IMG/VR virus record: IMGVR_UViG_3300008262_000001
Direction: 5' to 3' (one strand)
DNA length: 64,000 nucleotides
Origin: a virus
Lineage: Duplodnaviria > Caudoviricetes
Shown piece after piece: positions 5,025 to 62,024 of this stretch. The stretch's first letter is position 1. Every line of letters starts with the position of its first letter. The translations under genes were made by a program, and so were the position numbers. The notes under the pieces are model-generated. The model saw nothing but the letters and a program-made list of their open reading frames with translations, searched no databases and was not told the origin of the DNA.

Positions 5025-5981
5025 CTATGCTTTATTTGCCATTTGTTGTAAAGTAAATATTAAGGCAAGCAAACTAACTACGGGATCAATAACAAGGTTC
5101 CTTTCAGCTTGGTATTTAGCAACTGTTATTATTATACCAGGAATCAAACCTGAGTTTTGTGGTTTTTTCTCTTGAATCCATCTTATAAAATCAGAGCTTA
5201 AAGATGTCATAACATCATCTGTTTTTGAAGAGTACTGCCCAACGATGTACTGGTAATTTTTTACAGGATCTGGTTTAGAAAAAATGAGCTCAAATACTTC
5301 TTCGTGGTCCCACAAAACCTCATTTATCTTTGATTCAGTTAGATCTTTAATCCCATCAATACTCCATCTTTGAATTGTGTTAAGTGCAGACCTCATGTCT
5401 GGAAAATACTTCTTCGTAAAAAGATCTAAATTCTTATCATCGTGCTCAATTTGAATTGCTGAAAGTATTTTGCTAACCCTTGACTTCCATTGATCTTGGA
5501 TTTCAACCTCTTCTTCTTTATTAATCGGATCAAAATCATAGAGTTCAAATCTTGATCTGATTGCTTCCGGAATTTTGTTTAGGTAGTTACAGGTGGCAAC
5601 GAATCTTGTACCTTTTGCATATTTTTCAATGGTTCCCCTTAAAGCCTTATAAAATTGTTCAGATGCACCATCAAACTCATCCAGGATTACAATCTTAGTC
5701 ATGTTCTCCCCGTCCATGATTGAGACAGTAGAACAGAAATCGTGAATTTTAGTTCTAATAGTCTCAACTGAACTTTCGTCAGAAACATTAATAAAAATGT
5801 GAGGATGGTTTTTCATCAGGATTTTTGCCATGCTGGTTTTTCCTGACCCTGGAGATCCCGATAAAAGCACATTTTGTTGTAAACCTCCTTCGAATGAATT
5901 CTTGATTCTATCCGGAAGGATCATGTGCTTTAATTCCTTCGGTCTGAGTTTCTCAGTTAATAATTCTTGTATCATTTGCAA
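5025..5981 (-). CDS. gp44: Clamp loader large subunit (T4 gp44 / RFC-like AAA+)
   Basis: EKLRPK, Walker A GSPGSGKT, Walker B ILDEFD, SRF, YFPDMRSALN; alternative start at 5975. Confidence 0.9.
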   Translation of the reverse strand: MQMIQELLTEKLRPKELKHMILPDRIKNSFEGGLQQNVLLSGSPGSGKTSMAKILMKNHPHIFINVSDESSVETIRTKIHDFCSTVSIMDGENMTKIVILDEFDGASEQFYKALRGTIEKYAKGTRFVATCNYLNKIPEAIRSRFELYDFDPINKEEEVEIQDQWKSRVSKILSAIQIEHDDKNLDLFTKKYFPDMRSALNTIQRWSIDGIKDLTESKINEVLWDHEEVFELIFSKPDPVKNYQYIVGQYSSKTDDVMTSLSSDFIRWIQEKKPQNSGLIPGIIITVAKYQAERNLVIDPVVSLLALIFTLQQMANKA

Positions 5982-7294
5982 TTTTCTGTAAAATCGTCTG
6001 CTAAAGTTTTATCGTTTCGTATTTCTATAAATCTTGGTAAGAATAATGACCAATTGTTGTTTTTGTCATTGATTATTACATTGTACTGAACTGAACATAT
6101 CTTACCGATGTGTTGATCTGGTTCAACACTCAATTCATGAAGATCGTTGTCAGTAAAACCAGATCCTATTTTTACCTTTAATATTCCGGTTTGATCCTCA
6201 CAAATAAACCCTCCTATAAATCCTTCTCTTTTTCCTTCTCCTGGGTACCAACCTTTAATTACTAAATCGCACTCGTTTACTTCTTTGAGTTTAATCCAAT
6301 TTTTTGATCTTTTACATTCGTAAACGTGATCTGGATTTTTAAGAATAACTCCTTCACCACCTTTACTAACTATATTTTTATAGTAACTATAGATGTCTTC
6401 TTTTTCTTTTGTAACAAATGATTCAGCCAATGTTACGGAATATGTTGGGGATTTTTCAAATACCCCTTCTAATGTTTGTCTCCTTATTTCAAAAGGAATT
6501 ACCCCCTTGCCTCTTTTCAGAGTTTCTGCATCTTCAAGATCAAAAACATTGAACATTAAATCATCACCTATAGAACTTGCAGGTTTTCCTTTGAGCATTT
6601 GGTTAACTTTTCCAGAAACACTTTTTCTATTTGAGTCTGTAAGTTCACCGTCTAAAAACCAATCGCCTTCTAATCCTGAATTTTTAATAAGAAGTTTACA
6701 TTCGTTTGCTATGACTGAAAGATATCCAGAAGAAATTTCATTGAAAGCCCTCGTGAAGAATTTAACTTCTTGTCCTGACACGAAAGCGATTATTCTAACT
6801 CCGTCATATTTTTCCTCACATATGATTTTCCCCCATTTGTTTATCTCTTTCTCATCGTCCTCTGCTAACATCAGACTAGGATCAGGTATAACTTCTCTTC
6901 CGAATGCCTTGTTGATTAATTTAGCTCCGATTCCTATATTCAATCTTTTGGTTAGGACCTTACCGAGCATTTTTCTTTCTTCAAAAGAAGCTTGAGTACA
7001 ATTAACTAGCTCAAAAGCCTCTTCTCGAAATTTGTCATTTGGTGCTGGTGCTTCAAAAAGTCTGCTTGTTAGATCTACAAACTTTTCGAATGCGTCATAT
7101 TGGACTAAATATGGACTTTCTTCTATGACTTCTAATTTGTGTAGTTTAGTGGTCAAAAAAGGATCTAAAGCAACTTTTAGCAAATACTCTAACTCTTTCG
7201 AGTAGTTGTTTTTAATGAGATCCTGTTTGATTTTTTGTGATCCCTCTCCAGTAGTAGATTCTATTTGTAGAAGGACAGAAAGTTCTTTTTGCAT
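5972..7294 (-). CDS. lig: ATP-dependent DNA ligase (T4 gp30-like)
   Basis: EKYDGVR, LDGEL, FNVFD, EGVILK, WIKLK, GSGFTD, LFLPRFIEIRNDK. Start placed at MQKELS (7294), downstream of a TAAATTTG element. Confidence 0.92.
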   Translation of the reverse strand: MQKELSVLLQIESTTGEGSQKIKQDLIKNNYSKELEYLLKVALDPFLTTKLHKLEVIEESPYLVQYDAFEKFVDLTSRLFEAPAPNDKFREEAFELVNCTQASFEERKMLGKVLTKRLNIGIGAKLINKAFGREVIPDPSLMLAEDDEKEINKWGKIICEEKYDGVRIIAFVSGQEVKFFTRAFNEISSGYLSVIANECKLLIKNSGLEGDWFLDGELTDSNRKSVSGKVNQMLKGKPASSIGDDLMFNVFDLEDAETLKRGKGVIPFEIRRQTLEGVFEKSPTYSVTLAESFVTKEKEDIYSYYKNIVSKGGEGVILKNPDHVYECKRSKNWIKLKEVNECDLVIKGWYPGEGKREGFIGGFICEDQTGILKVKIGSGFTDNDLHELSVEPDQHIGKICSVQYNVIINDKNNNWSLFLPRFIEIRNDKTLADDFTENCK

Positions 7295-9065: not shown

Positions 9066-10670
9066 TTATAATTTAAATTCTCCTGCAGCTTCTTCAGGTT
9101 TAGTTTCTTCCGTGCCCTCACCCTCTTTTCCTTCTGCTTCTTTTTTCTTCTCAGCAGCTTCTTTCTTAGCTTTTTCGTTATCAATTCTATCTTGAGCTGT
9201 CATTCCAAGATATCTGTCGAGCAAGAATTGTAAACTAAAATATGGTTTACCCTCTGAATTTTTCAAGCCCAATATTTTAATCACTTGATCTTTTCTTGCT
9301 GTCATAATTTCCATCTCCTTGGCTTCTTTAAACATGTTCTCTTTCACGTAATCAAGACCAAATTCGGATTTAATTATATAGTCATTTTTGAGATGCGGAA
9401 AGTCCAAACAAAATTGGACCCAGAGGGGTTTCATTAAGATTTCTTGGTAGATTGACCTTAGCCTGTTTATGAATTTACTAAATCTAATTTCTTCCATATC
9501 CAATCCATCTGCTCCAAAGGAAATAGTTCCTTCAGATCCGCTGTCTTCTCTTCCAAATCTTGAAACTGGAACTTTTGAATCTATCCTTAATTTGTTTGCA
9601 AAATATTGAAGAGCCTTTGTATCAGAAAATGCAGTGGCATCACCAGCTCCTGGTAAAGGCTGAATATCTGGAGTTCCATTAGGAGAAGATGGCATTAAAT
9701 AATTCTTGAAGAATTGTATTTTTGGCCTTCCGTCAACTGTTAACTCACCAGAGTCTGTATTTAATCTTATGTCCTCTTTGTAAATTGACATAAGTTCACC
9801 TAGAGTTTGTTTGGCTTTTTGTGGTGATTTTGTACCTATTGGTACAGTCATAGCCATACGATAAGAGGAATTCATCACGTTCCAAATTATCCTAGTGTGC
9901 TCCATGATTCTAAGCAAATTGAATGACCTTATTAATCTTTCAATGTAGCTTATTCTCGAAGCTGTACCACCACCCTTGGCGTAACTTATATAGATGATTT
10001 GCGAATCGTACAATTTTCTGGTTAAGGAAGGATTATCAGGATATTGAATCCAGATATCAACGAAAGATCCATCAGGCTGAGCTTCTACAGTTGGAACTAA
10101 CGATGCTGCATCTATTTCTTTGAATCCAACTATACTTTTTCCTTTCTTATCGAAAACTATTTCAAAAGCAAGATTTCCCTCTACTAAAAATTTGCGGAAT
10201 AAATGCCAAGCTGAGATATCCTGATTGAATCCAAATAGGTTATAAATTTCTTTATATCTTTTTTGGGTCTGAGCATAGATTTCTTTATCGACATCTTCAT
10301 GTTGCATGAAAGAGAAATAAGCCCAGAAATTCTTATCATCATAAACTATCGATTCATCACATACAGTATCTAATATGAATTCTATTTCCGGATTTTGTGC
10401 AAACCCTTGAACATAATGTCTTTTGTTCTTGAAATCCTTATCAAAATAAGCTATGTATTGTTTTGTTGTGGTATCTGCTTTTCTTATCCCGAAAAGGAAT
10501 GACTCATCCTTTATACCACCTTTCTTAAGAAATTGTGCCTCAGTAACACCAACTGCATAGGAATTTTTTACGACTAGATCTCCATAAGCCATTCCGAAAT
10601 TTCCCACTTTTTTAATATTCTCTACAATAGAGCTAAAAAAAGTTTTTTTGCCATCTGTAAATCCAGCCAT
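9066..10670 (-). CDS. gp20: Portal protein, paralogue 2 (T4 gp20-like)
   Basis: EIEFILDTVCDESIV, FRKFLVEG, RLIRSFNLLRIMEHTRIIW, EEIRFSKFINRLR; aligns along its length with the adjacent ORF. Confidence 0.85.
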   Translation of the reverse strand: MAGFTDGKKTFFSSIVENIKKVGNFGMAYGDLVVKNSYAVGVTEAQFLKKGGIKDESFLFGIRKADTTTKQYIAYFDKDFKNKRHYVQGFAQNPEIEFILDTVCDESIVYDDKNFWAYFSFMQHEDVDKEIYAQTQKRYKEIYNLFGFNQDISAWHLFRKFLVEGNLAFEIVFDKKGKSIVGFKEIDAASLVPTVEAQPDGSFVDIWIQYPDNPSLTRKLYDSQIIYISYAKGGGTASRISYIERLIRSFNLLRIMEHTRIIWNVMNSSYRMAMTVPIGTKSPQKAKQTLGELMSIYKEDIRLNTDSGELTVDGRPKIQFFKNYLMPSSPNGTPDIQPLPGAGDATAFSDTKALQYFANKLRIDSKVPVSRFGREDSGSEGTISFGADGLDMEEIRFSKFINRLRSIYQEILMKPLWVQFCLDFPHLKNDYIIKSEFGLDYVKENMFKEAKEMEIMTARKDQVIKILGLKNSEGKPYFSLQFLLDRYLGMTAQDRIDNEKAKKEAAEKKKEAEGKEGEGTEETKPEEAAGEFKL

Positions 10671-11263
10671 TATGCTAGTGAGTTTTTCTTATATATCTCT
10701 TCAATCGGGGTCCCTTCAATTGCCCTGGTATGCAGATATACTATTCTAGTCCAATCTTCGTAGGTAATTTCTTTTGCATCTCTTATTTTCTGTAAATCCC
10801 AAGCTCTATAAGAATTCTTCCAAGGAATTCCTTTCATGATTAAATCCATAGTTGGATAGTCACATTTTAATTGCACCTGTTCTAAAACATCACCTTTTTC
10901 TATCCTTTGAACATTGGTCGATATTTGGGATTCATAGACACTACTTATTCTACTGAAAAAAGCAAGTCTATATTGAGGAGGAATAAGAACTAAATCTAGC
11001 CCACTAAATACAAGTTTATCTTGGGAGTTAAAGAATCCCATAAAAAACAAAAGAGGTCTTCTGTTTACGAATTTCTTTGATTTATCGAGTTTATCGTTGT
11101 AATCAAAGGAATATATTTTACCAACTAGAAAATCAGAAATCTGTAAGGTTGATTTTTTGTCAAGATAATTTTCTCTCCAAAACAGAAATGAAGCATCGGA
11201 TAAGGAAGACAGACCAGAGACACTCAATTGATATTCTTCGAACCTTTCCTGGAAGGATTTCAT
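10670..11263 (-). CDS. DNA end protector (T4 gp2-like)
   Basis: IYSFDYNDK...RPLLFFMG...GLDLVLIP resembles gp2; adjacent to the gp4-like gene as in T4-like phages. Confidence 0.6.
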   Translation of the reverse strand: MKSFQERFEEYQLSVSGLSSLSDASFLFWRENYLDKKSTLQISDFLVGKIYSFDYNDKLDKSKKFVNRRPLLFFMGFFNSQDKLVFSGLDLVLIPPQYRLAFFSRISSVYESQISTNVQRIEKGDVLEQVQLKCDYPTMDLIMKGIPWKNSYRAWDLQKIRDAKEITYEDWTRIVYLHTRAIEGTPIEEIYKKNSLA

Positions 11264-52644: not shown

Positions 52645-54030
52645 ATGGTATCTAAAAAGGTGTTTAGTTTTATAGAATTCGTAAACGAAAACTACAACAA
52701 TCAAGACTTACTAAATGAAGAAAAAGAAGCATATGTCCCTTCAAAAGAGGATATAATGAAGATTTTGGAAATTCAGCAAAAAATTGGACAAAACTATAAG
52801 AAGGTTAAGGGAGAAAAACAGTTTGAAAAAGGAGGTAAAACAAACAAACAAGTTTGGGCATCATTAGATGTTTTCAATTCATTAGATGCCACTTTACAAG
52901 AATCTGCAATTAAAGATATTCAAAAAGCTTTTGGTAAAAAAAGCATAAGTCAAAAGACTTTTGAATCAGTTCTCAAAATGTTCGAAGAATCTGCAAATGG
53001 AGGGTCAATTTCCTACACAGTAAAATACTCAGGTAACAACCAAAGTATCTATGCAATTGTTACAAAGCAAACTATCGAAAAGGAAGAGCCTTCCAAAAAA
53101 ACAGAAACTAAACCCCCGGTTGAATCAGAAAAAATAGTCCTGATAGATCCTTTGAAAACTTCTTATTTTTTCAAAAACAACATGTACGAAATTAAGGAAG
53201 ATAATCTAGGGGAAACATTTGTTGATGTTGAATACACAAAACAGGTTTTAGATTTGATAGACGAAAAAATAGCCGAAGGCTACCAATCTTACCAAATAGA
53301 TAAAGCTGGAGGGATCACAAAAATTTCTATAAGTGCTTCATGCTCAAGATACAGAAACAGAGGTATTTCAGAATCTCTATCGTGGGCAGAATTAGCTTAC
53401 AAAAGAGTTGGTATCTTTTCTAAGTATATCAAAGCCTCGGCTGAGAAGATATCGGAAAATGACAAAGAATTTGTTGATAAGATTTTATCAGTAATTGAAC
53501 TGGAATATTTTGGGTCTAACGGAGATGGAACATCAGGACCAGATCCAAATAAAGATGACAAAGGTGCATCAGTAAGAAAAGGATATTACATCCAAAAAGG
53601 TAACAAAGCTGAATTTGTTGACTCTAAAGGTACAGACCTAACTATGATTAATGTTGTAGATGTAACTACTGGAGAAAATGCAATTCCTGTGCTAGGAGAA
53701 AAACCTAAACAAGTTAAAGCAAAAAATGTTGATGGAACTGATATAGATAAAGCTCCGGCAAATCCTAAAGATTACGATCCATTCAGATATTTCCAAATAG
53801 AAATGGAGGGTCAATTTGTTAAGACAAAAGAAACAGAAACCCTTCCTGAAGAAGAACCACCTGTAATTACTGTTACTGAGAAATATAAAATTGCTATTTC
53901 TTTTCCAGTAAAAATTAAGAATAGCTCATTCATTAAATTACCAAGAAGATCTAAAAATAAAACTAAAACTTACAGTCCTCCCAAAGGAGGTGGAAAAAGA
54001 AGAGCAGTTCCTTGCCCTATATGGGATTAA
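52645..54030 (+). CDS. Putative head-packaged protein, possibly with a divergent OmpA-like domain
   Basis: FSFIEFVNE start; late promoter; own terminator; FFKNN...ISISASCS...ELAYKR...RYFQIE pattern. Confidence 0.55.
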   Translation: MVSKKVFSFIEFVNENYNNQDLLNEEKEAYVPSKEDIMKILEIQQKIGQNYKKVKGEKQFEKGGKTNKQVWASLDVFNSLDATLQESAIKDIQKAFGKKSISQKTFESVLKMFEESANGGSISYTVKYSGNNQSIYAIVTKQTIEKEEPSKKTETKPPVESEKIVLIDPLKTSYFFKNNMYEIKEDNLGETFVDVEYTKQVLDLIDEKIAEGYQSYQIDKAGGITKISISASCSRYRNRGISESLSWAELAYKRVGIFSKYIKASAEKISENDKEFVDKILSVIELEYFGSNGDGTSGPDPNKDDKGASVRKGYYIQKGNKAEFVDSKGTDLTMINVVDVTTGENAIPVLGEKPKQVKAKNVDGTDIDKAPANPKDYDPFRYFQIEMEGQFVKTKETETLPEEEPPVITVTEKYKIAISFPVKIKNSSFIKLPRRSKNKTKTYSPPKGGGKRRAVPCPIWD

Positions 54031-54046
54031 ATAAATTAAGATTTAT

Positions 54047-54070
54047 AAAAAAGCCCTTAGGGGCTTTTTT
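54047..54070. terminator. Bidirectional terminator
   Basis: AAAAAAGCCC-TTAG-GGGCTTTTTT. Confidence 0.85.
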
Positions 54071-54690
54071 TATTGATTAGGATCCTGAATAAAGACAGTA
54101 ACATTAAATGTGTTGCAAACGATGCGAAGAAAACCCTGATCTATTTGCTTTTGGGTCAAATCCTTTGTAGTTTTATAAAACACCATGGTTGTATAGGATC
54201 CAATGTATCCATATTTTTTATCGGTTGCTATAGACCAATGTGAAGGAGAATTACGATAGGAAGCTAATACATTTTTGTAAGAAAATTCAGGATCAACTAT
54301 TTCTTCCCAATTGGTACCTTTTTGATACTTTGGATTAATGATAGTATATGTGGTTTCAACGTTACAAATTTCTGAAGTTTGTCCATTGAATCCAGAACGA
54401 TCACTAGGTTTTACTTTTTCGACAAAATTTGGATAATCTACATATTCTCTATGTGTGAGAGAGTCTGTGTGGATGTAATGAAATATAAGATATTGAGCAT
54501 GGTGCTTGGCTGCAGAATCCAGCACTGAAAGCCTTTTCAACGAATTTGGATTACTCTTGTCAAACCCGGTAACTAAAGAATCTGTCGATTTAAATAAACA
54601 TTTTATTTCTAAAATTTCAACACCTCTTGGCATCTGGGCATTACAAACTACAGATAAAATAAGGAAGGAAAGGGCTAGTATGTTTTTCAT
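54070..54690 (-). CDS. Secreted CAP/SCP-like protein
   Basis: Signal peptide MKNILALSFLILSVVCNA; LDSAAKHHAQYL, EIC, YRNSPSHW. Confidence 0.55.
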   Translation of the reverse strand: MKNILALSFLILSVVCNAQMPRGVEILEIKCLFKSTDSLVTGFDKSNPNSLKRLSVLDSAAKHHAQYLIFHYIHTDSLTHREYVDYPNFVEKVKPSDRSGFNGQTSEICNVETTYTIINPKYQKGTNWEEIVDPEFSYKNVLASYRNSPSHWSIATDKKYGYIGSYTTMVFYKTTKDLTQKQIDQGFLRIVCNTFNVTVFIQDPNQ

Positions 54691-54754
54691 AATCTCCTTG
54701 TTTGATAAAGTAAATGTAGAAGATTCTAGCTAAGATAAAAAATATTTCCTCGTT

Positions 54755-55324
54755 TTATTTTAAAAACCGAAGAATTTTTTCTTTAATACCCACCTGCTTG
54801 ATTCCTTCATTTCCCCTTGGAGTATGGACAAAATTTTCTAATCCCCATTCGTGGATAAATTCCATCGAATAAGATTTGACAATCTTACCCATATTGAGAT
54901 CGTCCACTGCAACCCAATTGGTTACTTCAGGATGGCTTTCAAGCCAGGTCATAATTTCCAAGCTTCTTGTGCCCTCAGAATCCCAGTCTCTGTGCCAAGT
55001 AGCTTTAGCTGGATCAATTATGTTTCCGGTGAAAGCAATGGGTTTTTTTATAATTCCCTGCATTTCATAATACAATCCCATTTCTTCAAGATTACAGAAG
55101 TGCTGCCAATCTGAACTCACGACTATTTCAGCATCTGTTTCTAAAAGGATTTTATTTAGAACACCAATTGCTTTTTTGTTGAAATTATCAAATCTGAATT
55201 CAACTGGTACACTCCTTTCTCCACCTGGATTTGGATTAGAGTAAGCTTTAGTTTTTTTCAATCTACTTCCCCATTCTGATGACAAACAGATAACACCATC
55301 ATGGTCTAAAAACAGAATTTTCAT
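54755..55324 (-). CDS. HAD-family phosphatase (HAD_SAK_2, RNA-repair-associated type)
   Basis: ILFLDHDGVI, IVVSSDW, EIMTWL, WVAVDDL. Start moved to 55324, directly after TATATTTG. Confidence 0.75.
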   Translation of the reverse strand: MKILFLDHDGVICLSSEWGSRLKKTKAYSNPNPGGERSVPVEFRFDNFNKKAIGVLNKILLETDAEIVVSSDWQHFCNLEEMGLYYEMQGIIKKPIAFTGNIIDPAKATWHRDWDSEGTRSLEIMTWLESHPEVTNWVAVDDLNMGKIVKSYSMEFIHEWGLENFVHTPRGNEGIKQVGIKEKILRFLK

Positions 55325-55382
55325 AATACAAATATAAAAAAATAGCACCGAAAGGATATATATTTTACTAAAAAAATCATCA

Positions 55383-56786
55383 ATGGAAAAAAACATTCTC
55401 AGATTTAGTAGCTACTTGGAAACACTTAGCGGAACAATCAATGAAAGCGAAACTTCAATCAAAACAATTTCACAAATAATCTCTGCTTACACTAAACTTT
55501 ATATGTTTCTCGTTTCAAAGTCTCCTAATTACAAAGATGTAGTTACTGATTTGATTGAGGTTAACGAAGAAAAAGACCCAGCTAAAAGAGGTGAGAAAAT
55601 GGCCGCTATGCTTAACAAGGTAGCTGAAACTGTTGATGCTAAGTATGCAGATGTTAAAACTGGTATTAAAGATCTTGCTAAGAAAATTGGGGATTTATTT
55701 ACTTCAGTTGCATCAAGTGAAGATGCTAAGAGTAAGAAAGAGGTAATAGACACAGCAATAGCTACACAAATATTCGGATATAGAGATATTGCTAAAAAAG
55801 AAGGAACTAACGAAAATATTCAAGGATTAGGTAAAAACCACGTTCAAATGTTTGAGCAGTTCACTTACCCTCTTCTATTCGAAAAGAAAACATTTGAAGA
55901 TGAAAGAGAGGATTTGGTTCAACAAATGAAGCCAACCTACACTGAAATGCAGCTTCAGAAAACTAATCCTAGTACAGAAACACTTAAAGCTAAAGCTGAA
56001 GAAGTGGTAAAAAGATTTGATGAAATTACCAAGCTTCTGAAAACTGAAGAAGAGTGGGAAAAAATGAAAAACAAAAAAGCTAGAAAAGAAAAGATTAAGG
56101 AACTGGGTGAAGAAATAGCTAAAACATCTGAAGAGGTTAGTAAAATACAAAAAGATGAGCTTTTCAAAATTGGTATTGAAAAGAAAACCGCTGAAGACTT
56201 ATCTAGCGTGATAACTGGAATAGCAGAACTTGAGAAAAAAGCTAAAGTCGTTGATGATGCAGTTTTAGCTAAAGCAGGAAGAGACACATTTCATTCTTCT
56301 CTAAAAGTTGGTGATACAGTTAAATACAAAAAAGATGATGGAACTGAAGCTGAGGGGGAAATCAGTAAAATAGTAGGTATAGGAGACGAGGCTAAATACA
56401 CCTTTAAAGATAAGGAAGGAAATCTTTTTGCTAAAACAGGGGATCAGATTATCTCAAAGGTCGAAAAAACAGAAGACAAAAAAGAAGAAGAGAAAAAAGA
56501 GTCTACTTTAAAATTAGAAAAAACGATCAAAGCAACTGGATCTTCACCAACAGGTGAAAATCTAGAACTAACCAAAAAGGTTTTCTCTTTGATATATGAT
56601 AAATTTACTGATAATAAAGAAATATCAGCTATGGAAGAATGGAAAAAATCCAACTTCGGCAAAACTAGTAAATTCTTCATAGGACCAAGCAGAACAGCAG
56701 TCATTAAAGCTATCAAGAAAGAGTATGGTTTAGAAGCAAAAAATGGAGATATCACCCCAGAATTGGTTCAAAAACTATCAGCATAA
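55383..56786 (+). CDS. Putative head-packaged coiled-coil protein with a KOW-like segment and possible C-terminal peptidoglycan-binding motif
   Basis: FSSYLE..INE start; LKVGDTVKY; FIGPSRTAVIKAIKKEYGL..NGDITPELVQKL; late promoter and terminator. Confidence 0.55.
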   Translation: MEKNILRFSSYLETLSGTINESETSIKTISQIISAYTKLYMFLVSKSPNYKDVVTDLIEVNEEKDPAKRGEKMAAMLNKVAETVDAKYADVKTGIKDLAKKIGDLFTSVASSEDAKSKKEVIDTAIATQIFGYRDIAKKEGTNENIQGLGKNHVQMFEQFTYPLLFEKKTFEDEREDLVQQMKPTYTEMQLQKTNPSTETLKAKAEEVVKRFDEITKLLKTEEEWEKMKNKKARKEKIKELGEEIAKTSEEVSKIQKDELFKIGIEKKTAEDLSSVITGIAELEKKAKVVDDAVLAKAGRDTFHSSLKVGDTVKYKKDDGTEAEGEISKIVGIGDEAKYTFKDKEGNLFAKTGDQIISKVEKTEDKKEEEKKESTLKLEKTIKATGSSPTGENLELTKKVFSLIYDKFTDNKEISAMEEWKKSNFGKTSKFFIGPSRTAVIKAIKKEYGLEAKNGDITPELVQKLSA

Positions 56787-56803
56787 CAAAAAATACAATA
56801 TTT

Positions 56804-56830
56804 AAAAGGGATAAATTCTATCCCTTTTTT
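56804..56830 (+). terminator. Intrinsic terminator
   Basis: AAAAGGGATA-AATTC-TATCCCTTTTTT. Confidence 0.8.
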
Positions 56831-56887
56831 TGTGACCTGTGATTACATATTCGTCACAATCAGATATATAAAACATCTAATTAATCA

Positions 56888-57172
56888 ATGAAACACATAA
56901 GAAAATTTGGAAATTTTGGAACCAAGATTAACGAGGGGTTCTGGAATAGTATTTTCGGAAATCCTACTATTGATGATGCTGCACAAGACTCAATGAAGGG
57001 CCAAGGATGGAGTCACAGAGGAAAAGAAGAGGATGAACAAAATTATATTATGTTCCAAGGACAGAAATTCTATCCTGACCAAATAGAATATGATGATGCT
57101 TACTCAACTAAGCCTATTCCTAGAATTGAGAACGGAAAGCTAATTGTAGCTAATCCTTCTTGGAATATGTAA
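56888..57172 (+). CDS. Small putative internal head protein
   Basis: MKHIRKFGNFGTKINEGF start; GATATATA at 56863-56870. Confidence 0.6.
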   Translation: MKHIRKFGNFGTKINEGFWNSIFGNPTIDDAAQDSMKGQGWSHRGKEEDEQNYIMFQGQKFYPDQIEYDDAYSTKPIPRIENGKLIVANPSWNM

Positions 57173-57178
57173 AGGAAG

Positions 57179-57262
57179 TACCCGGGACGGGAATCGAACC
57201 CGTACAACCAAATGGTTACAGCATTTTAAGTGCTGCGTGACTACCAATTCCACCACCCGGGC
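57179..57262 (-). tRNA. tRNA-Leu(UAA)
   Basis: GCCCGGG acceptor; anticodon arm CAGCA-CTTAAAA-TGCTG; long variable arm; GGTTCGATT T-loop. Confidence 0.95.
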
Positions 57263-57265
57263 AAA

Positions 57266-57341
57266 TGGTCGAGACAATGAGACTTGAACTCATAGCCTTG
57301 ATCGTATAAGGATCCTGCTCTTACCATTGAGCTATGTCTCG
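57266..57341 (-). tRNA. tRNA-Ile(UAU), CCA encoded
   Basis: CGAGACA/TGTCTCG acceptor; D arm GCTC-AATGGTAA-GAGC; GATC-CTTATAC-GATC anticodon arm; TTCAAGT T-loop; ACCA 3' end. Confidence 0.92.
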
Positions 57342-57353
57342 ATTTTAAAAATG

Positions 57354-57428
57354 TGTTCCCTGTAGGGATCGAACCTACGACCTACGGTTTATGAGACCGT
57401 TGCTACTAACCAACTGAGCTAAGGGAAC
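57354..57428 (-). tRNA. tRNA with CAU anticodon (elongator Met or lysidine-modified Ile2)
   Basis: GTTCCCT/AGGGAAC acceptor; ACGGT-CTCATAA-ACCGT; lacks initiator features (no three G-C pairs, no C1:A72). Confidence 0.9.
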
Positions 57429-57429
57429 T

Positions 57430-58080
57430 TTATGATAAATATTTTGTGGGAATTTCATATATTCCTCTTCTTATCTGTTCAATCTCCTCTTTTTTGATTA
57501 TTATAAGATTATTTACGCATTTCCACTTTTCTCTATCACGATCTCTTTCATAGCCTTTTACCTCGATATAAGCATCAATTTTTGGCAAATAAAAATCAGG
57601 AAAATAGTAATGAATATTCCCTATCCAAAAATAGTCGAATGGTTTTGTAATTTTATTTGTCCATTGTATTTCATGAATGTCGAGCCATTTTGCTACATCT
57701 AGCTCCCATTTTCCTTTAAGCTTAAATCCCTTATATTCAAAAATTTTAGTTCTACCTGAAACGTTATTAGCTGAATAAGAGTGTGGGTTTTCAAGAACTG
57801 TTTTTTTCATTTTTTCTGAATGCTTTTTTTTCCTTTCAAGTGTCCATTTTTCACCCTTTTTAGAGTCTGATATTTTTTTTCTGGTTTCTTGGGCTAATAA
57901 AGGAAATGAGAGCCCCATTTCTTTAGATTTTATATATTGATTGGAAGCATTAGATTTTTTTCCAAACATTGGGTTATTTTCTCCAGCTTTACTCTTTCTT
58001 TCTGGATTCATTTTGCAATAAGACTCGTGATTTTTTAATCCAAATATATTTTTATCTTCTTTACAATATTTACAATTCAT
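57430..58080 (-). mobile_element. Free-standing homing endonuclease inside the tRNA operon (NUMOD3-like repeats plus PD-(D/E)xK domain)
   Basis: GENNPMFGK, ETRKKISDSKKG, YFPDFYLP..DAYIEVKG. Confidence 0.75.
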
Positions 58081-58100
58081 ACTAAACTATATATAAAAAG

Positions 58101-58172
58101 TACCCCTGGCGGGAATCGAACCCACATTTTGAGATTAGAAGTCACATGTTCTATCCGTTGAACTACGGGGGC
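58101..58172 (-). tRNA. tRNA-Arg(UCU)
   Basis: GCCCCCG acceptor; TGTGA-CTTCTAA-TCTCA anticodon arm; GGTTCGATT T-loop. Confidence 0.93.
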
Positions 58173-58202
58173 TTAAATTATTTTACCACTACTTCAAAGA
58201 AC

Positions 58203-58232
58203 AAAAAAACCGGAACTTTTAAAGGTCCCGGT
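58203..58232 (-). terminator. Intrinsic terminator upstream of the tRNA operon (candidate attenuator)
   Basis: ACCGGGAC-CTTTAAAA-GTTCCGGT followed by a U-tract, 30 nt before tRNA-Arg. Confidence 0.8.
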
Positions 58233-58272
58233 TTTTGATATATTTAAGATGGAATATCAAAATTAGGACCTT

Positions 58273-58332
58273 TTAAAATCGTCTTATGAACGACCTTAAT
58301 ATTAGCCTTAATGAAATTGATTTTCCTATCAT
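58273..58332 (-). CDS. 19-aa leader peptide MIGKSISLRLILRSFIRRF (candidate attenuation peptide)
   Basis: ATG ATA GGA AAA TCA ATT TCA TTA AGG CTA ATA TTA AGG TCG TTC ATA AGA CGA TTT TAA; A-rich start context; promoter ~35 nt upstream. Confidence 0.65.
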   Translation of the reverse strand: MIGKSISLRLILRSFIRRF

Positions 58333-58367
58333 TTGTGTTTTATACCTTTGTGAATGCTTTTGTTTCA

Positions 58368-58375
58368 CAAAGATA
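58368..58375 (-). promoter_or_regulatory. Bacteroidota-type -7 element TATCTTTG driving the leader peptide and tRNA operon
   Basis: Exact match to TAnnTTTG, correctly oriented. Confidence 0.65.
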
Positions 58376-58380
58376 ACAAA

Positions 58381-58677
58381 TTAAAGTACTGAAAAAAATA
58401 TTTTATGAAGTTCTTCGATGAAAATTTTAGTTGGTTTGCCTAAATAAGATGCAACATCTTCGGCTATTTCTTCATCTTCTGTATCACAGACAATATAAAA
58501 ATTAGCATCTTCCCTGATTGAGCTTCTGTTTAGGGCTAAATTGTCTAAATCTGATGCTGGATCATCCCAGAGATCTTCGTAGTCTGGTCTCTCAATTTCA
58601 TCTTCTTCAAAGTATGAGAAGATATCTTTCTCCTCATAGCTGAATTCATCGAATTCACAATAAATCTTGATTGCCAT
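58381..58677 (-). CDS. Hypothetical acidic protein
   Basis: ORF coupled to 58690-59034. Confidence 0.5.
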   Translation of the reverse strand: MAIKIYCEFDEFSYEEKDIFSYFEEDEIERPDYEDLWDDPASDLDNLALNRSSIREDANFYIVCDTEDEEIAEDVASYLGKPTKIFIEELHKIFFSVL

Positions 58678-58689
58678 AAAAATGCTTGA

Positions 58690-59034
58690 TTAAACTTCCT
58701 CGATTAGAACTTTCTTAAGATCGTATCCTGTTGGGATATCTGAAGATTTTTCGTAGTAACCAATAATTGAATACTGTTTTCCGTCTGAACTAGAATCTGG
58801 AACCATCTCCATTTTGCTAACCATTGATCCTCCAGTGTATTCTGGTTCTAATGCACCACCTATTTCGATTGTTGTAGGCATGCCTTCAGAATTTTCAAAA
58901 TTTACAAAGTAGTTTCCCTCGGTATAAGCATCACCTTGGGTGATGTCGGTAGATTCAGCTTCAAAGTGAACTGGAGTAGTTTCAACTGGCATGGTTTCAA
59001 AACCATAATCTTCGTATATTTTTAAATGCCTCAT
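58690..59034 (-). CDS. Small putative internal head protein
   Basis: MRHLKIYE start; GATATATA at 59045-59052. Confidence 0.55.
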   Translation of the reverse strand: MRHLKIYEDYGFETMPVETTPVHFEAESTDITQGDAYTEGNYFVNFENSEGMPTTIEIGGALEPEYTGGSMVSKMEMVPDSSSDGKQYSIIGYYEKSSDIPTGYDLKKVLIEEV

Positions 59035-59251
59035 CTTTTTTAATTATATATCTATTTATCTTCCCTGGCCAACGTAAACTTTTTTGTAATTCTTAGATTT
59101 TTTGTTTTTACTAGATTTACACTTAGAATGTATCCCTTTATTACATTTCTTTGCTTTCTTTCTGAATGTACTAGTGGATTCACTTTTCTTAGGTTTAGCC
59201 ATGTTTTGATAAGATTATTTAGTTTTGTCTACATATGTATCTTAGAGAAAC

Positions 59252-59276
59252 AAAAAATCCCGCCTGAGCGGGATTT
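59252..59276 (-). terminator. Terminator downstream of Ro60
   Basis: AAATCCCGC-CTGA-GCGGGATTT with an A-run on the plus strand. Confidence 0.8.
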
Positions 59277-59296
59277 GGTTGATATGGCACAAAAAC

Positions 59297-60919
59297 TCAG
59301 GATTCTATAGAATCCCAAATGTCAATAATTGCTTTTGCAAAGACAGGTTCTTTTCCTGTCCAACCTGATAAAATTGCACCTCTATAAAGATTTTCTGGAA
59401 GAACTGAATTATCGTATCCAGCAACCTGAACAGAGAAGACATTTACTTTAGGATTCACCTTCTTTCTGTAAACTTCAACCATCTTTAAAACATCTACGTG
59501 TGTGGATGAACTAGTTGTTCCATAAGGAGATCTGCCAACAGTGTTTGAAAATCCGAAAAGACCACCGTGTCCCGCTTGCATATCAGAGTAAATGAAGACC
59601 GTATCGTAGTGAATCTTTTCTGTGATGGCTTGATCCCAAAATACCCAAATACCATTCTCAGTAGATCCCCCTTGCATTTTTCCTCTTTGTGATGTCTCTT
59701 CCAGTTGTGTGAGTAGACCATTTCTTTTAGAGATCTCTTCTAATGAAAGTTTATCACCAAAAACACCAACAAGACCTTGGTCTGCTTGCATTGCAGTAAT
59801 TAAAGAAGAAAGGTTTGCAATTTCTGCTACGGTAACTGATCCATATTCACTCTGACAAGATCCCCAAGCAGAACCTGAATTGTCAGACAGACAAGCAACT
59901 TTACCCTTAAGCTTAGGCATATTTGCTACTGCTATATCTAAGCATTCTTCTAAAGCATCAAGTATTAGTCTTTTGTTGTTTACTTCTTCTGAAGACTTAA
60001 CTGCTTTATAAGCTGACCAATATCTAAATGGGAATTGCTTTCCTTTCAAAACTCCAGATTTTAATCCATCTAGAATTTTAACGGTGGTATCAAGATCTGA
60101 TATCTCTTTGAAAATTCCTCTTAGGTTTTTCAGAAGAGCCATATGAGGAACTGTAATTTGCTTCAAAATCTCTTGCCAGTTTTTACCTGCAGACTTAAGA
60201 CTTTCCCAGGTCATTTCAGTTTCTAAAATATTGAGCTTACCAGTTGTCATAAGCTCACTGATGTCATCATTAGAAGCATGAGATATTCTTACTAGGTCAA
60301 TGAGTTTTTTGCCCTTGTACTTGTTGAGCTGATATCTGCTATACTCTTCTAATCTTTCCGCCCATGTACGTTTAATTAAGGATGGAAGCTTTGATTTTGT
60401 TCCATTCTTAAACATGTAATAGTCAAACTGGTTAGTTAAGTCATCAGGTCTTTCTGCAATTTTCTTCCCGATGTTTTTCATATAACCAGGATTCATCTCA
60501 TTAAAAGATTTCCTGCTCTCGTGAGAAAGTGCCCTAACAAATATAACCGAAGGGTTTAATCTCATAAGATATTCAGTCCTGAGTTCTAGGGCTAAGTCCA
60601 ATGTAGCTTGGAAATCAAAAGAAAGCGAATTGTCGATTGCCTGCTCAAAAACATCCACTGCAGATCTTTTATCTTTGAATAGATCCGGGAAAATTGAATG
60701 GTCTATAATCGTAGAGATATTTTTGATTGTAGCATTAGAATTGATCCCATCCCGATAATATTGAGGTTCTCCAAAAATCGAAGAAGCTGCTACAATTTTC
60801 AATGTTTGTAAAGGAGAAATCTTGTAAGATGTTCCTGACATGAAATTCTGAACTTTGTCTCCAGAGTTTTTTCTAGACAAAGCTGTTTCTTTAATACCAA
60901 ATTCGCTTAATTTAGACAT
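59297..60919 (-). CDS. rsr: Ro60/TROVE-domain RNA-binding protein with vWA domain
   Basis: SSIFGEPQYY, LRTEYLMRLNP, RPDDL, MTWE, VPHMALLKNLR, QFPFRYWSAY, vWA MIDAS LSDNSGS, FIYSDMQ, VQVAGY. Confidence 0.92.
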   Translation of the reverse strand: MSKLSEFGIKETALSRKNSGDKVQNFMSGTSYKISPLQTLKIVAASSIFGEPQYYRDGINSNATIKNISTIIDHSIFPDLFKDKRSAVDVFEQAIDNSLSFDFQATLDLALELRTEYLMRLNPSVIFVRALSHESRKSFNEMNPGYMKNIGKKIAERPDDLTNQFDYYMFKNGTKSKLPSLIKRTWAERLEEYSRYQLNKYKGKKLIDLVRISHASNDDISELMTTGKLNILETEMTWESLKSAGKNWQEILKQITVPHMALLKNLRGIFKEISDLDTTVKILDGLKSGVLKGKQFPFRYWSAYKAVKSSEEVNNKRLILDALEECLDIAVANMPKLKGKVACLSDNSGSAWGSCQSEYGSVTVAEIANLSSLITAMQADQGLVGVFGDKLSLEEISKRNGLLTQLEETSQRGKMQGGSTENGIWVFWDQAITEKIHYDTVFIYSDMQAGHGGLFGFSNTVGRSPYGTTSSSTHVDVLKMVEVYRKKVNPKVNVFSVQVAGYDNSVLPENLYRGAILSGWTGKEPVFAKAIIDIWDSIES

Positions 60920-60945
60920 GAGAGTTGTGGTTTAAATTACACAAT

Positions 60946-60987
60946 AAAAAAGGATCTAGAATGTGAAAAATCTCACACTTAGATCCC
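60946..60987 (-). terminator. Intrinsic terminator between the Y-like RNAs and the Ro60 start
   Basis: GGATCTA..TGTGA-loop-TCACA..TAGATCC followed by TTTTTT, ~27 nt before the ATG. Confidence 0.7.
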
Positions 60988-61026
60988 AGAATTTTTATGA
61001 CTATTGCTAGTCTTTAAAAAAAATCC

Positions 61027-61086
61027 GAGAATATTAGTTTTGGGTTTTTTTCGATAATAAGTGAAGTATCCCAAAACACCGCTTCA
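61027..61086 (-). ncRNA. Short Y-RNA-like element (60 nt)
   Basis: TGAAGCGGT-GTTTTG-GGATACTTCAC...CCCAAAAC-TAATA-TTCTC; 8-bp terminal helix; adjacent to Ro60. Confidence 0.55.
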
Positions 61087-61110
61087 GATTTAGTTATTTC
61101 TTTGTTTCTT

Positions 61111-61315
61111 GAGAAATCTTTAAAAGGGATTGCTAATTACGTTAGCTAGTCGTACCCTAATTTCTAGGCCGGTATAATGACCCGATCTACTGTGGTTTTC
61201 CTTTGCAGGCGTTTTTTCTGTAGCACTACTAAAACCTTTGTGCCTTGTACTAATCTTGGGGATTAATACTCAGCTTTTTTTGCGTAATTGTGGAGTATCC
61301 TTCTAAACCGCTTCA
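61111..61315 (-). ncRNA. Long Y-RNA-like element (205 nt) with a multi-hairpin insert
   Basis: TGAAGCGGT-TTAGAA-GGATACTCCAC...ATCCCTTTTAAA-GAT-TTCTC; inner helices AATTACG/CGTAATT, GTATTAATC/GATTAGTAC, CCTA/TAGG. Confidence 0.6.
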
Positions 61316-61378
61316 AGAAAAAAAGAATAAGAAATGAAAGAACGTTTTATTTTGATACCGCTAATGTAATACAAAGTT

Positions 61379-61693
61379 TCAATTTAGATTCTCCTGGAGG
61401 AAAATTTTTATTTGATCTTCTGATTTTACTCCTGAAAATCTAGCAACTTCTTTACCCTCACTGGTGATCACACATGTTGGAATATTTTTAATTCCAAACT
61501 TTTTAGTTGTTAGTTGAGCCTCTCCAACATCTGCCTTTACGAAATTGAAATCGTTTTGAAATTCTTCTGACACTTTCTCCAATGTTGGTTTTATAATTTT
61601 GCAAGGTCCACACCAATCTGCAGAAAATAGGATAAAAGATTTCTGTGAAGAATCAATTACTTTTTCTAGTTCTTGGTCTTTAAGACTATTCAT
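61379..61693 (-). CDS. trxA: Thioredoxin
   Basis: FSADWCGPCK, FGIKNIPT; start moved to MNSLKD. Confidence 0.92.
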   Translation of the reverse strand: MNSLKDQELEKVIDSSQKSFILFSADWCGPCKIIKPTLEKVSEEFQNDFNFVKADVGEAQLTTKKFGIKNIPTCVITSEGKEVARFSGVKSEDQIKIFLQENLN

Positions 61694-61748
61694 TTTGTTT
61701 GAGTTATTTAGTAGTCTATATAACCTCAAAGACTTTGAACTTCAATCT

Positions 61749-62024
61749 TTATTCACTTATTTTTTCGTCAATTTCACTTAAAGACGGACCTGATAAATCG
61801 ATTTCACTACTTGGATTTACGTTTAATTTTTTTGTGAAATCGCTAGATATTTCTAATGATTCATTTTCCGATCTAATCTCAGAAACTGCACCTCCTTCTG
61901 AAGATTTATTTTGGCTTTGAATCATCTCCATGAGTTTTTTCATCTTAGTTTTTGACAAGCCTTTTGGTTTAGGTGTATGTTTTACCTTTTTACCATTTTT
62001 CTTTCTTACTCTACTTTTAGGCAT
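61749..62024 (-). CDS. Small protein with a basic N-terminus
   Basis: MPKSRVRKKNGKKVK. Confidence 0.5.
   Translation of the reverse strand: MPKSRVRKKNGKKVKHTPKPKGLSKTKMKKLMEMIQSQNKSSEGGAVSEIRSENESLEISSDFTKKLNVNPSSEIDLSGPSLSEIDEKISE

Follow-up and report, generated by a model that had tools for sequence, protein, structure and literature searches.

Leader-Peptide Attenuators and a Candidate Counterpart in a Phage tRNA Operon

Leader-peptide attenuation is a textbook mode of control of amino-acid operons and is known from trpL, hisL, leuL, thrL and the ilv leaders. The pheST attenuator of E. coli, with its pheM leader, controls phenylalanyl-tRNA synthetase. The present study concerns a comparable leader on the minus strand of a stretch of tailed phage DNA of 64,000 nucleotides (nt), IMG/VR record IMGVR_UViG_3300008262_000001, referred to below over its full length as the window. 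In this order, the locus contains a Bacteroidota-type −7 promoter box, a 19-codon open reading frame (ORF), an intrinsic terminator, tRNA-Arg(UCU), an endonuclease gene, tRNA(CAU), tRNA-Ile(UAU) and tRNA-Leu(UAA). The element is probably a ribosome-mediated (leader-peptide) transcription attenuator that gates the phage tRNA operon. An initial annotation, made from the sequence alone, had proposed both this layout and this reading. Every element of the layout was found in its place, and the reading is supported at the sequence level, because the composition of the leader follows the tRNA set within the family as well as in sequence-unrelated units of other phages, 24 other versions of the unit are conserved and a 1:2 helix is present too.

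The sequence features of the leader-peptide attenuator class, namely the ORF, its codons, the terminator, the antiterminator, the anti-antiterminator and the placement of the stop codon, are all present in the locus. As in the amino-acid leaders, a short, presumably translated leader with regulatory codons is combined with 1:2, 2:3 and 3:4 helices and with a terminator before the first gene, and the stop is placed so that a terminating ribosome would mask region 2. The thr and ilv leaders also name several amino acids in one leader. The phage element differs from all of these in that tRNA genes and not enzymes are regulated, and that the product would feed back on the decoding of the leader. 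It is also virus-encoded, belongs to a host type without Shine-Dalgarno sequences and has no similarity to the Rfam leader families. The pheST system likewise places a leader-peptide attenuator over a translation component serving the leader's own codons; however, one synthetase and one amino acid are concerned there, whereas here tRNAs for three to six amino acids would be controlled directly and together. T-box riboswitches resemble the element in converting the status of a specific tRNA into a choice between antiterminator and terminator upstream of translation-related genes. A T-box, however, binds uncharged tRNA through the specifier codon and the T-box sequence without a ribosome, whereas the locus has no T-box match and its conserved feature is an open, codon-biased frame. 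In a cmscan search of positions 54000–62000 against Rfam (E ≤ 1), only the tRNAs and sub-threshold noise were recovered, with no leader family and no T-box.

Candidate leader-peptide attenuators with TAnnTTTG promoters at −12 to −5 have been described in Flavobacterium psychrophilum (PMC9723704). They share with the phage element the probable host phylum, the TAnnTTTG promoter and initiation without a Shine-Dalgarno sequence, but are located before bacterial amino-acid biosynthesis operons (PMC9723704). These leaders make the mechanism plausible in such hosts. The initial annotation likewise named no described leader-peptide attenuator of phage tRNA genes, and full-text searches of the literature gave no description of leader-peptide attenuation of tRNA genes or of such use by a virus. 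The mechanism is a known one, and its target, the tRNA genes, is new.

Organization of the Leader

The −7 box TATCTTTG (58375–58368, minus strand, as are all the leader features below) fits the Bacteroidota sigma-A consensus TAnnTTTG, which occupies positions −12 to −5 (PMC9723704), and the TAnnTTTG box is invariant in 24 of 24 aligned members of the family. Given this fit and this position, transcription is predicted to start near 58363, about 5 nt past the box, which leaves a 31-nt, A-rich 5′ untranslated region (UTR). Shine-Dalgarno motifs are not above random among the genes of the window (7/62 vs 8% at random positions). The extended promoter motif TAnnTTTGTGAAACAAAA was considered as a general phage promoter and ruled out, as it occurs only once in the window. 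The phage DNA of the window has a G+C content of 33–35% and is present in lake and freshwater metagenomes.

The leader ORF runs from the ATG at 58332 to the TAA at 58275–58273 and consists of 19 codons plus the stop (peptide MIGKSISLRLILRSFIRRF). Inside it lies region 1 (58330–58304), the 5′ strand of the 1:2 anti-antiterminator, which spans the UUA AGG codons. A hairpin enclosed by the 1:2 structure (58299–58273; 11-base-pair (bp) stem, loop CAUAA) extends over codons 12–19 and the stop, and may serve as a pause hairpin. Region 2 (58273–58248) is the alternative partner of region 1 or region 3; its core, AAAGGUCCU at 58273–58265, begins at the last base of the leader stop codon and so overlaps the stop by 1 nt. 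The inner helix of the antiterminator with its loop occupies 58262–58233 and is formed by UUUUGAUAU and AUAUCAAAA. Region 3, the 3′ strand of the antiterminator (GGGACCUUU, 58229–58221), overlaps the 5′ arm of the intrinsic terminator. The latter comprises regions 3 and 4 and is located at 58236–58203, with a stem of 58232–58225/58216–58209 containing one G-U pair, an 8-nt loop and a U7 tract at 58209–58203. A terminator scan also called it, at 58236–58205, and its energy is −13 to −15 kcal/mol.

Codon Content of the Leader

The codons read by the four downstream tRNAs were taken as ATA, ATG, TTA, TTG, AGA and AGG, with both readings of the CAT anticodon allowed. The leader contains three ATA, two TTA, two AGG and one AGA, together with CTA and CGA, exactly as the initial annotation had listed them. 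This gives 8 cognate codons out of the 18 that follow the ATG, compared with 11.6% in the long ORFs of the window (P = 4.8 × 10⁻⁴). Dinucleotide shuffles of the leader contained 2.64 cognate codons on average, and none of 5000 reached eight (P = 2 × 10⁻⁴). In the +1 and +2 frames of the leader, 0 and 1 cognate codons were counted, respectively. The shuffles and the contrast between the frames indicate that the codon bias is frame-specific and not a by-product of AT-richness.

Conservation of the Unit among Related Phages

Relatives were collected through the Ro-like protein encoded upstream of the unit, which gave 49 IMG/VR loci, and a protein search with the upstream ORF of 98 amino acids added the distant member L001. 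The unit is carried by 12 of the 49 loci, always immediately upstream of clustered tRNA genes, namely Ser(TGA), Arg(TCT), Pro(TGG), Ile(TAT), CAT and Leu(TAA). A pattern spanning regions 2 to 3 recovered 28 real copies from metagenome contigs, while 6 of its 34 hits were rejected as chance matches. Scanning IMG/VR for exact matches to the core hairpin added no real copy, and 8 extra hits to the core motif were rejected as chance matches in GC-rich coding DNA. The 12 IMG/VR contigs and 28 metagenome contigs represent 25 distinct versions of the unit, that of the window included. A search of phage-collection DNA with the window unit and two unrelated units matched tRNA genes only and revealed no cultured relative.

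A tRNA cluster follows every real copy with room downstream, beginning 25–47 nt past the terminator unless an endonuclease gene is inserted in between. Different contigs have different genes upstream of the unit, so the segment from promoter to terminator moves together with the tRNAs. The initial annotation had named relatives that retain the tRNAs but have lost the codon bias or the antiterminator complementarity as an observation that would count against it; instead, the 24 other versions keep the ORF, its bias, the antiterminator and the terminator. Of the 24 aligned leaders, 23 have retained the ATG. No stop codon is in frame over the first 57 nt, while the two remaining frames contain 88 and 13, and the leader of L001 has a 3-nt deletion that preserves the frame.

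Codons 2–6 of the family leaders vary freely. In most members, codons 7–19 specify Ile, Leu, Pro, Ser or Arg without interruption; these are exactly the amino acids of the downstream tRNAs, and the family leaders contain 12–13 cognate codons out of 18–23. Among the variant codon types at codons 7–19, 26 of 40 fall within the set read by the cluster, against a background of 21.5% (P = 4 × 10⁻⁹). Replacements are mostly other codons of the set and not synonyms; position 10, for example, is occupied by TTA, ATA, TCA, TCT or TCC. Judged from the alignment, such variation within the set fits regulatory codons and not a functional peptide.

Differences in the tRNA sets have counterparts in the leaders. 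Pro codons are absent from the leaders of the window and L093, both of which lack tRNA-Pro, and number 1–3 in the others. In L093, moreover, Leu(UAG) and Leu(GAG) replace Leu(UAA), and the leader has no UUA and uses CUG, CUC and CUU. L087 is without Ile(UAU) and has one AUA vs 2–5 in the others; in L001, five Ser codons accompany two Ser tRNAs. Such cases, few as events and partly from short contigs, are suggestive of leader codons and tRNA sets changing together.

Alternative RNA Structures

The whole 171-nt leader folds with a z-score of −4.4. The initial annotation had pointed to an 8-nt complement between the leader stop and the 5′ arm of the terminator. This complementarity is exact (AAAGGTCC, 58273–58266, with GGACCTTT, 58228–58221), and the predicted antiterminator is longer than had been claimed, with 9 outer pairs (58273–58265 with 58229–58221) and a 9-bp inner helix (58262–58254 with 58241–58233). 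The best duplex between the neighbourhood of the stop codon and the terminator 5′ arm has an energy of −14.4 kcal/mol vs −8.4 ± 2.4 kcal/mol for dinucleotide shuffles (P = 0.018). The resemblance to trp and his leaders is likewise fuller than originally stated, as a 1:2 helix (58330–58304 with 58270–58248) is present as well.

In stepwise folding, before region 3 is made, this helix encloses the hairpin 58299–58273 and locks region 2 (−21.0 kcal/mol). Once the transcript extends to the terminator loop, the antiterminator is the best structure (−27.6 kcal/mol), and at full length the terminator is formed. Folding with a masked ribosome, which the initial annotation had suggested, gave the terminator with the ribosome at the stop or with none, and the antiterminator as the minimum-energy structure with the A site at codons 8–12.

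Across the 24 aligned members, 86.9% of cells in the 1:2 helix, the inner hairpin and the terminator are paired, with nine compensated pairs, and none of 500 shuffles reached the covariation score of this off-state structure. Seven pairs with compensatory changes belong to the homologue of the 1:2 helix and two to the inner hairpin (AGACCGUC-GAUAA-GACGAUCU in relatives); the terminator has 97% of cells paired across the family. In the outer 2:3 helix, 91.7% of cells are paired in the 24 sequences, but this helix is largely invariant, and invariance alone is uninformative. More telling cases come from individual members. L002 has a compensatory U-A for A-U in the 2:3 helix, at a terminator-loop position, and in L001, regions 1, 2, 3 and 4 have all been replaced together with all three pairings kept. 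AGGUCC of region 2 is invariant in the 24 members and its flanks nearly so; because of a 1-nt indel, it belongs to the ORF of some members and follows the stop of others. Being invariant in spite of the differing reading frame, AGGUCC is conserved at the RNA level and not as a peptide signal.

Subgroups have different spacer sequences between regions 2 and 3, and most versions of the spacer still form a helix of at least 6 bp. The inner antiterminator helix of the window has P = 0.013 vs shuffles. Taken singly, the inner helices are weak against shuffles (P mostly 0.1–0.3), and their recurrence over differing spacers is the only support for them. According to these comparisons, three mutually exclusive predicted helices (1:2, 2:3 and 3:4) are kept in the family.

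Sequence-Unrelated Units before Other Phage tRNA Clusters

Units of the same design, unrelated in sequence to that of the window, are located before other phage tRNA clusters. The leader of L033/L046 contains the run Lys, Lys, Cys, Trp, His, Met, Phe, Gly, Phe, Ala, Gly, Lys and is followed by tRNAs for Ala, Phe, Lys, Met, Cys, Gly, Trp and His. L040/L042 have an Ala/Ser/Pro-rich leader, in this case with a Shine-Dalgarno sequence, before Pro, Pro, Ser, Ala and Ala tRNAs, and L050 has a Tyr/Leu/Ser-rich leader before Tyr, Leu, Leu, Ser and Ser tRNAs. These leaders are enriched in cognate codons vs the background of their own phages (P from 2 × 10⁻⁴ to 6 × 10⁻⁷) and vs shuffles. When the leaders of six units (L003, L001, L028, L033, L040 and L050) were set against their tRNA sets in a matrix, the true pairing was reached by 2 of 720 permutations. 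The complementarity between the stop region and the terminator 5′ arm beats shuffles in each unit (Fisher P = 1.7 × 10⁻⁶, six families), and the end of region 2 lies, in every unit, from −11 to +9 nt relative to the stop codon.

Further units with a promoter, a short ORF, a terminator and the motif GTTCTTTGA were observed before Glu, Asp, Met and other tRNA blocks of the relatives (L002 at about 10560–10745, L038 at about 9230–9415, L062 at about 5380–5640 and 6540–6800, and L001 at about 6290–6540). In each, the end of the ORF complements the terminator arm.

Proposed Mechanism and Alternative Explanations

According to the attenuator model, RNA polymerase would start about 5 nt past the TATCTTTG box, and the A-rich 5′ UTR would permit initiation at the AUG at 58332 without a Shine-Dalgarno sequence. 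A fast ribosome would arrive at the UAA, its footprint would mask region 2 (AAAGGUCCU), the 3:4 terminator would form and transcription would stop before tRNA-Arg. A ribosome slowed on AUA, UUA or AGR codons would occupy or melt region 1 and leave region 2 free to pair with region 3 on its emergence, through the 9 bp of the outer helix and the 9-bp inner helix. With the terminator blocked in this way, RNA polymerase would read into tRNA-Arg(UCU), tRNA(CAU), tRNA-Ile(UAU) and tRNA-Leu(UAA). The tRNA product would relieve the delay, which amounts to negative feedback on the decoding capacity for the codons that these tRNAs serve. We infer that the ORF is translated, that its translation is coupled to RNA polymerase, that the switch works in this direction and that stalling leads to readthrough. 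The signal could be low tRNA abundance, poor charging or cleavage of tRNA by host defence.

If the model is true, phage tRNA genes are not simply expressed but are feedback-regulated by the codon-specific decoding capacity of the cell. This bears on the question of why phages carry tRNAs, whether for codon-usage compensation, during host shut-off or in escape from tRNA-targeting defence. It would also supply an annotation rule, in that leader composition predicts the tRNAs of one transcription unit and may reveal the codon of an ambiguous CAU tRNA, and natural parts for codon-specific biosensors in hosts without Shine-Dalgarno sequences. More tentatively, and with our own doubts prevailing, phage tRNA blocks might each stand behind a codon-specific decoding sensor, with the loss of host tRNAs switching on the matching replacements. 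In that case, a classical attenuator would have been turned into a circuit of counter-defence and homeostasis, by which anticodon-nuclease cleavage or host shut-off is sensed.

A number of observations weigh against the attenuator model. No leader of the family shows a weaker bias than that of the window, in which only 8 of 18 codons are cognate. Three Ser codons are retained in it, though no tRNA-Ser is located downstream, and its conserved CGA is outside the decoding set of the cluster and lies in a helix. In one relative, L007 (6993–7167), ATA takes the place of the leader ATG. An in-frame TAA is located just upstream of this ATA, and the tRNA-Ser of this relative was missed by ARAGORN; L007 may be a decaying copy or reflect a sequencing error. 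Masked-ribosome folding did not bear out the expectation for codons 13–17, where an A site still leaves the terminator in the equilibrium fold, so antitermination from these positions would depend on kinetics. As long as arm 4 has not been made, an untranslated leader favours the antiterminator at equilibrium (−27.6 vs −21.0 kcal/mol); it may therefore default to readthrough. The Glu/Arg units L024 and L028 fail the composition-preserving shuffle (P about 0.3), and their leaders were dropped as support for the codon match. The motif GTTCTTTGA recurs before tRNAs that have no attenuator. Finally, many phage tRNA clusters are without such a leader, including several in the examined loci and those of Bacillus phage G. 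The Ro-like protein of that phage is 50% identical to that of the window and its promoters are sigma-70-like; no leader or terminator was found before the tRNA clusters near its Ro-like gene.

Among the other explanations, the one closest to the proposed model accepts a working attenuator that senses general translation speed or amino-acid charging, as under starvation or host shut-off, rather than the abundance of the particular tRNAs, and that is unrelated to the cleavage of tRNA as a defence against phages. Since it is charged tRNA that classical attenuators sense, sequence cannot separate the two signals, and in the absence of translation the fold favours the antiterminator once region 3 has been made. 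We nevertheless regard this explanation as unlikely, since the leader codons are anticodon-specific down to UUA vs CUN for Leu(UAA) vs Leu(UAG/GAG), and a speed sensor needs no such specificity. It is less likely still that the ORF with its terminator is a self-contained small gene or small RNA, the terminator gating nothing and the tRNAs being transcribed from their own downstream promoter near GTTCTTTGA. This motif (58202–58194) is located immediately past the U-tract, and in the related loci 14 of its 35 occurrences lie no more than 60 nt upstream of a tRNA start, vs 3% by chance. It also stands 4–22 nt before tRNAs with no preceding terminator (the spacing of 4–22 nt being found in L001 at 6517, L002 at 10717, L005 at 1110 and 2585, L028 at 2394 and L038 at 8495 and 9389), and L028 has a TAnnTTTG-like box between the terminator and the motif. 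GTTCTTTGA might thus be a separate promoter, a promoter-like box or a processing site. Yet it is without the TA of the sigma-A box, and its 39 matches over the whole window equal the expectation (38.9). Moreover, an independent promoter leaves unexplained that the leader codons track the tRNA set, that the terminator arm of each unit has its complement in region 2, and that the identity of the peptide is free while membership of the tRNA set is retained.

A switch independent of translation, in which the RNA binds tRNA in a T-box-like manner or is recognized by an RNA-binding protein, for instance the Ro-like protein encoded nearby, would account for the strong structure of the leader and for the TROVE/Ro60-like gene 1 kb upstream. 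We consider it very improbable: the Rfam search returned no family, T-box included; the ATG, the open frame and its frame-specific codon content are conserved; and in several relatives the unit lies away from the TROVE gene and still before tRNAs. As for chance, by which AT-rich DNA would have produced the short ORF and the 8-nt complement accidentally and the terminator would only end the operon upstream, it is true that short ORFs and weak helices are common in such sequence and that the 8-mer alone gives P = 0.018. Twenty-four other distinct versions with covariation, always before tRNAs, and a frame-specific codon match contradict this explanation and make it scarcely credible. The leader-peptide attenuator is the reading retained below.

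tRNA Genes and Neighbouring Genes

All of the genes of the operon are on the minus strand. The first gene after the terminator, tRNA-Arg(UCU) (58172–58100), begins 30 nt past the U-tract and was predicted by ARAGORN and by the Rfam tRNA model (60.6 bits). tRNA(CAU) (57428–57353), tRNA-Ile(UAU) (57341–57266) and tRNA-Leu(UAA) (57262–57178) were identified by ARAGORN and the Rfam tRNA model as well. A NUMOD3-type homing endonuclease gene (58080–57430, phrog_15137) is inserted within the operon between tRNA-Arg and tRNA(CAU), and in L013 and L075 an endonuclease gene is located between the terminator and the first tRNA. In run X20, one contig connects 57430 to 58099 without the endonuclease gene, a weak observation with only 25 nt on one side. 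Candidate RNA runs contained only tRNA-like fragments of other organisms and no reads on the leader.

The anticodon stem of tRNA(CAU) shows that it is not an initiator, leaving elongator Met and lysidine-Ile as candidates; an identity search against E. coli genomes gave nothing informative. An internal ATG is absent from every leader of the family, and under the attenuator model the CAU tRNA would consequently be a lysidine-type reader of AUA. In the window, tRNA(CAU) precedes tRNA-Ile(UAU), and all relatives have the reverse order.

The Ro60-like (TROVE) gene (60919–59297, minus strand) is located about 1 kb upstream of the unit and has its own terminator; two small ORFs are also found upstream of the unit. 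Other neighbours are a thioredoxin gene (61729–61379) and, downstream of the unit, a gene (55396–54755) whose product has the HAD domain known from 'Swiss army knife' RNA-repair enzymes. Such RNA-repair-type neighbours match a theme of RNA damage only loosely.

The motif GAAGCGGU..GAUACUYC occurs twice upstream of the TROVE gene, at 61314–61292 and 61085–61063 (minus strand), where 0.06 hits are expected. An Rfam search gave no match for these elements, which might act as Y-RNA-like partners of the Ro protein of the phage. Similar motifs, GAAGCGGTT..AGTTACTTC, are present near the TROVE genes of L005, L033–L037, L046, L049 and L050. Beyond the second copy in the window (61085–61063) lie a GUUUUGGG/CCCAAAAC helix and a U-run able to pair with the 5′ flank of this copy.

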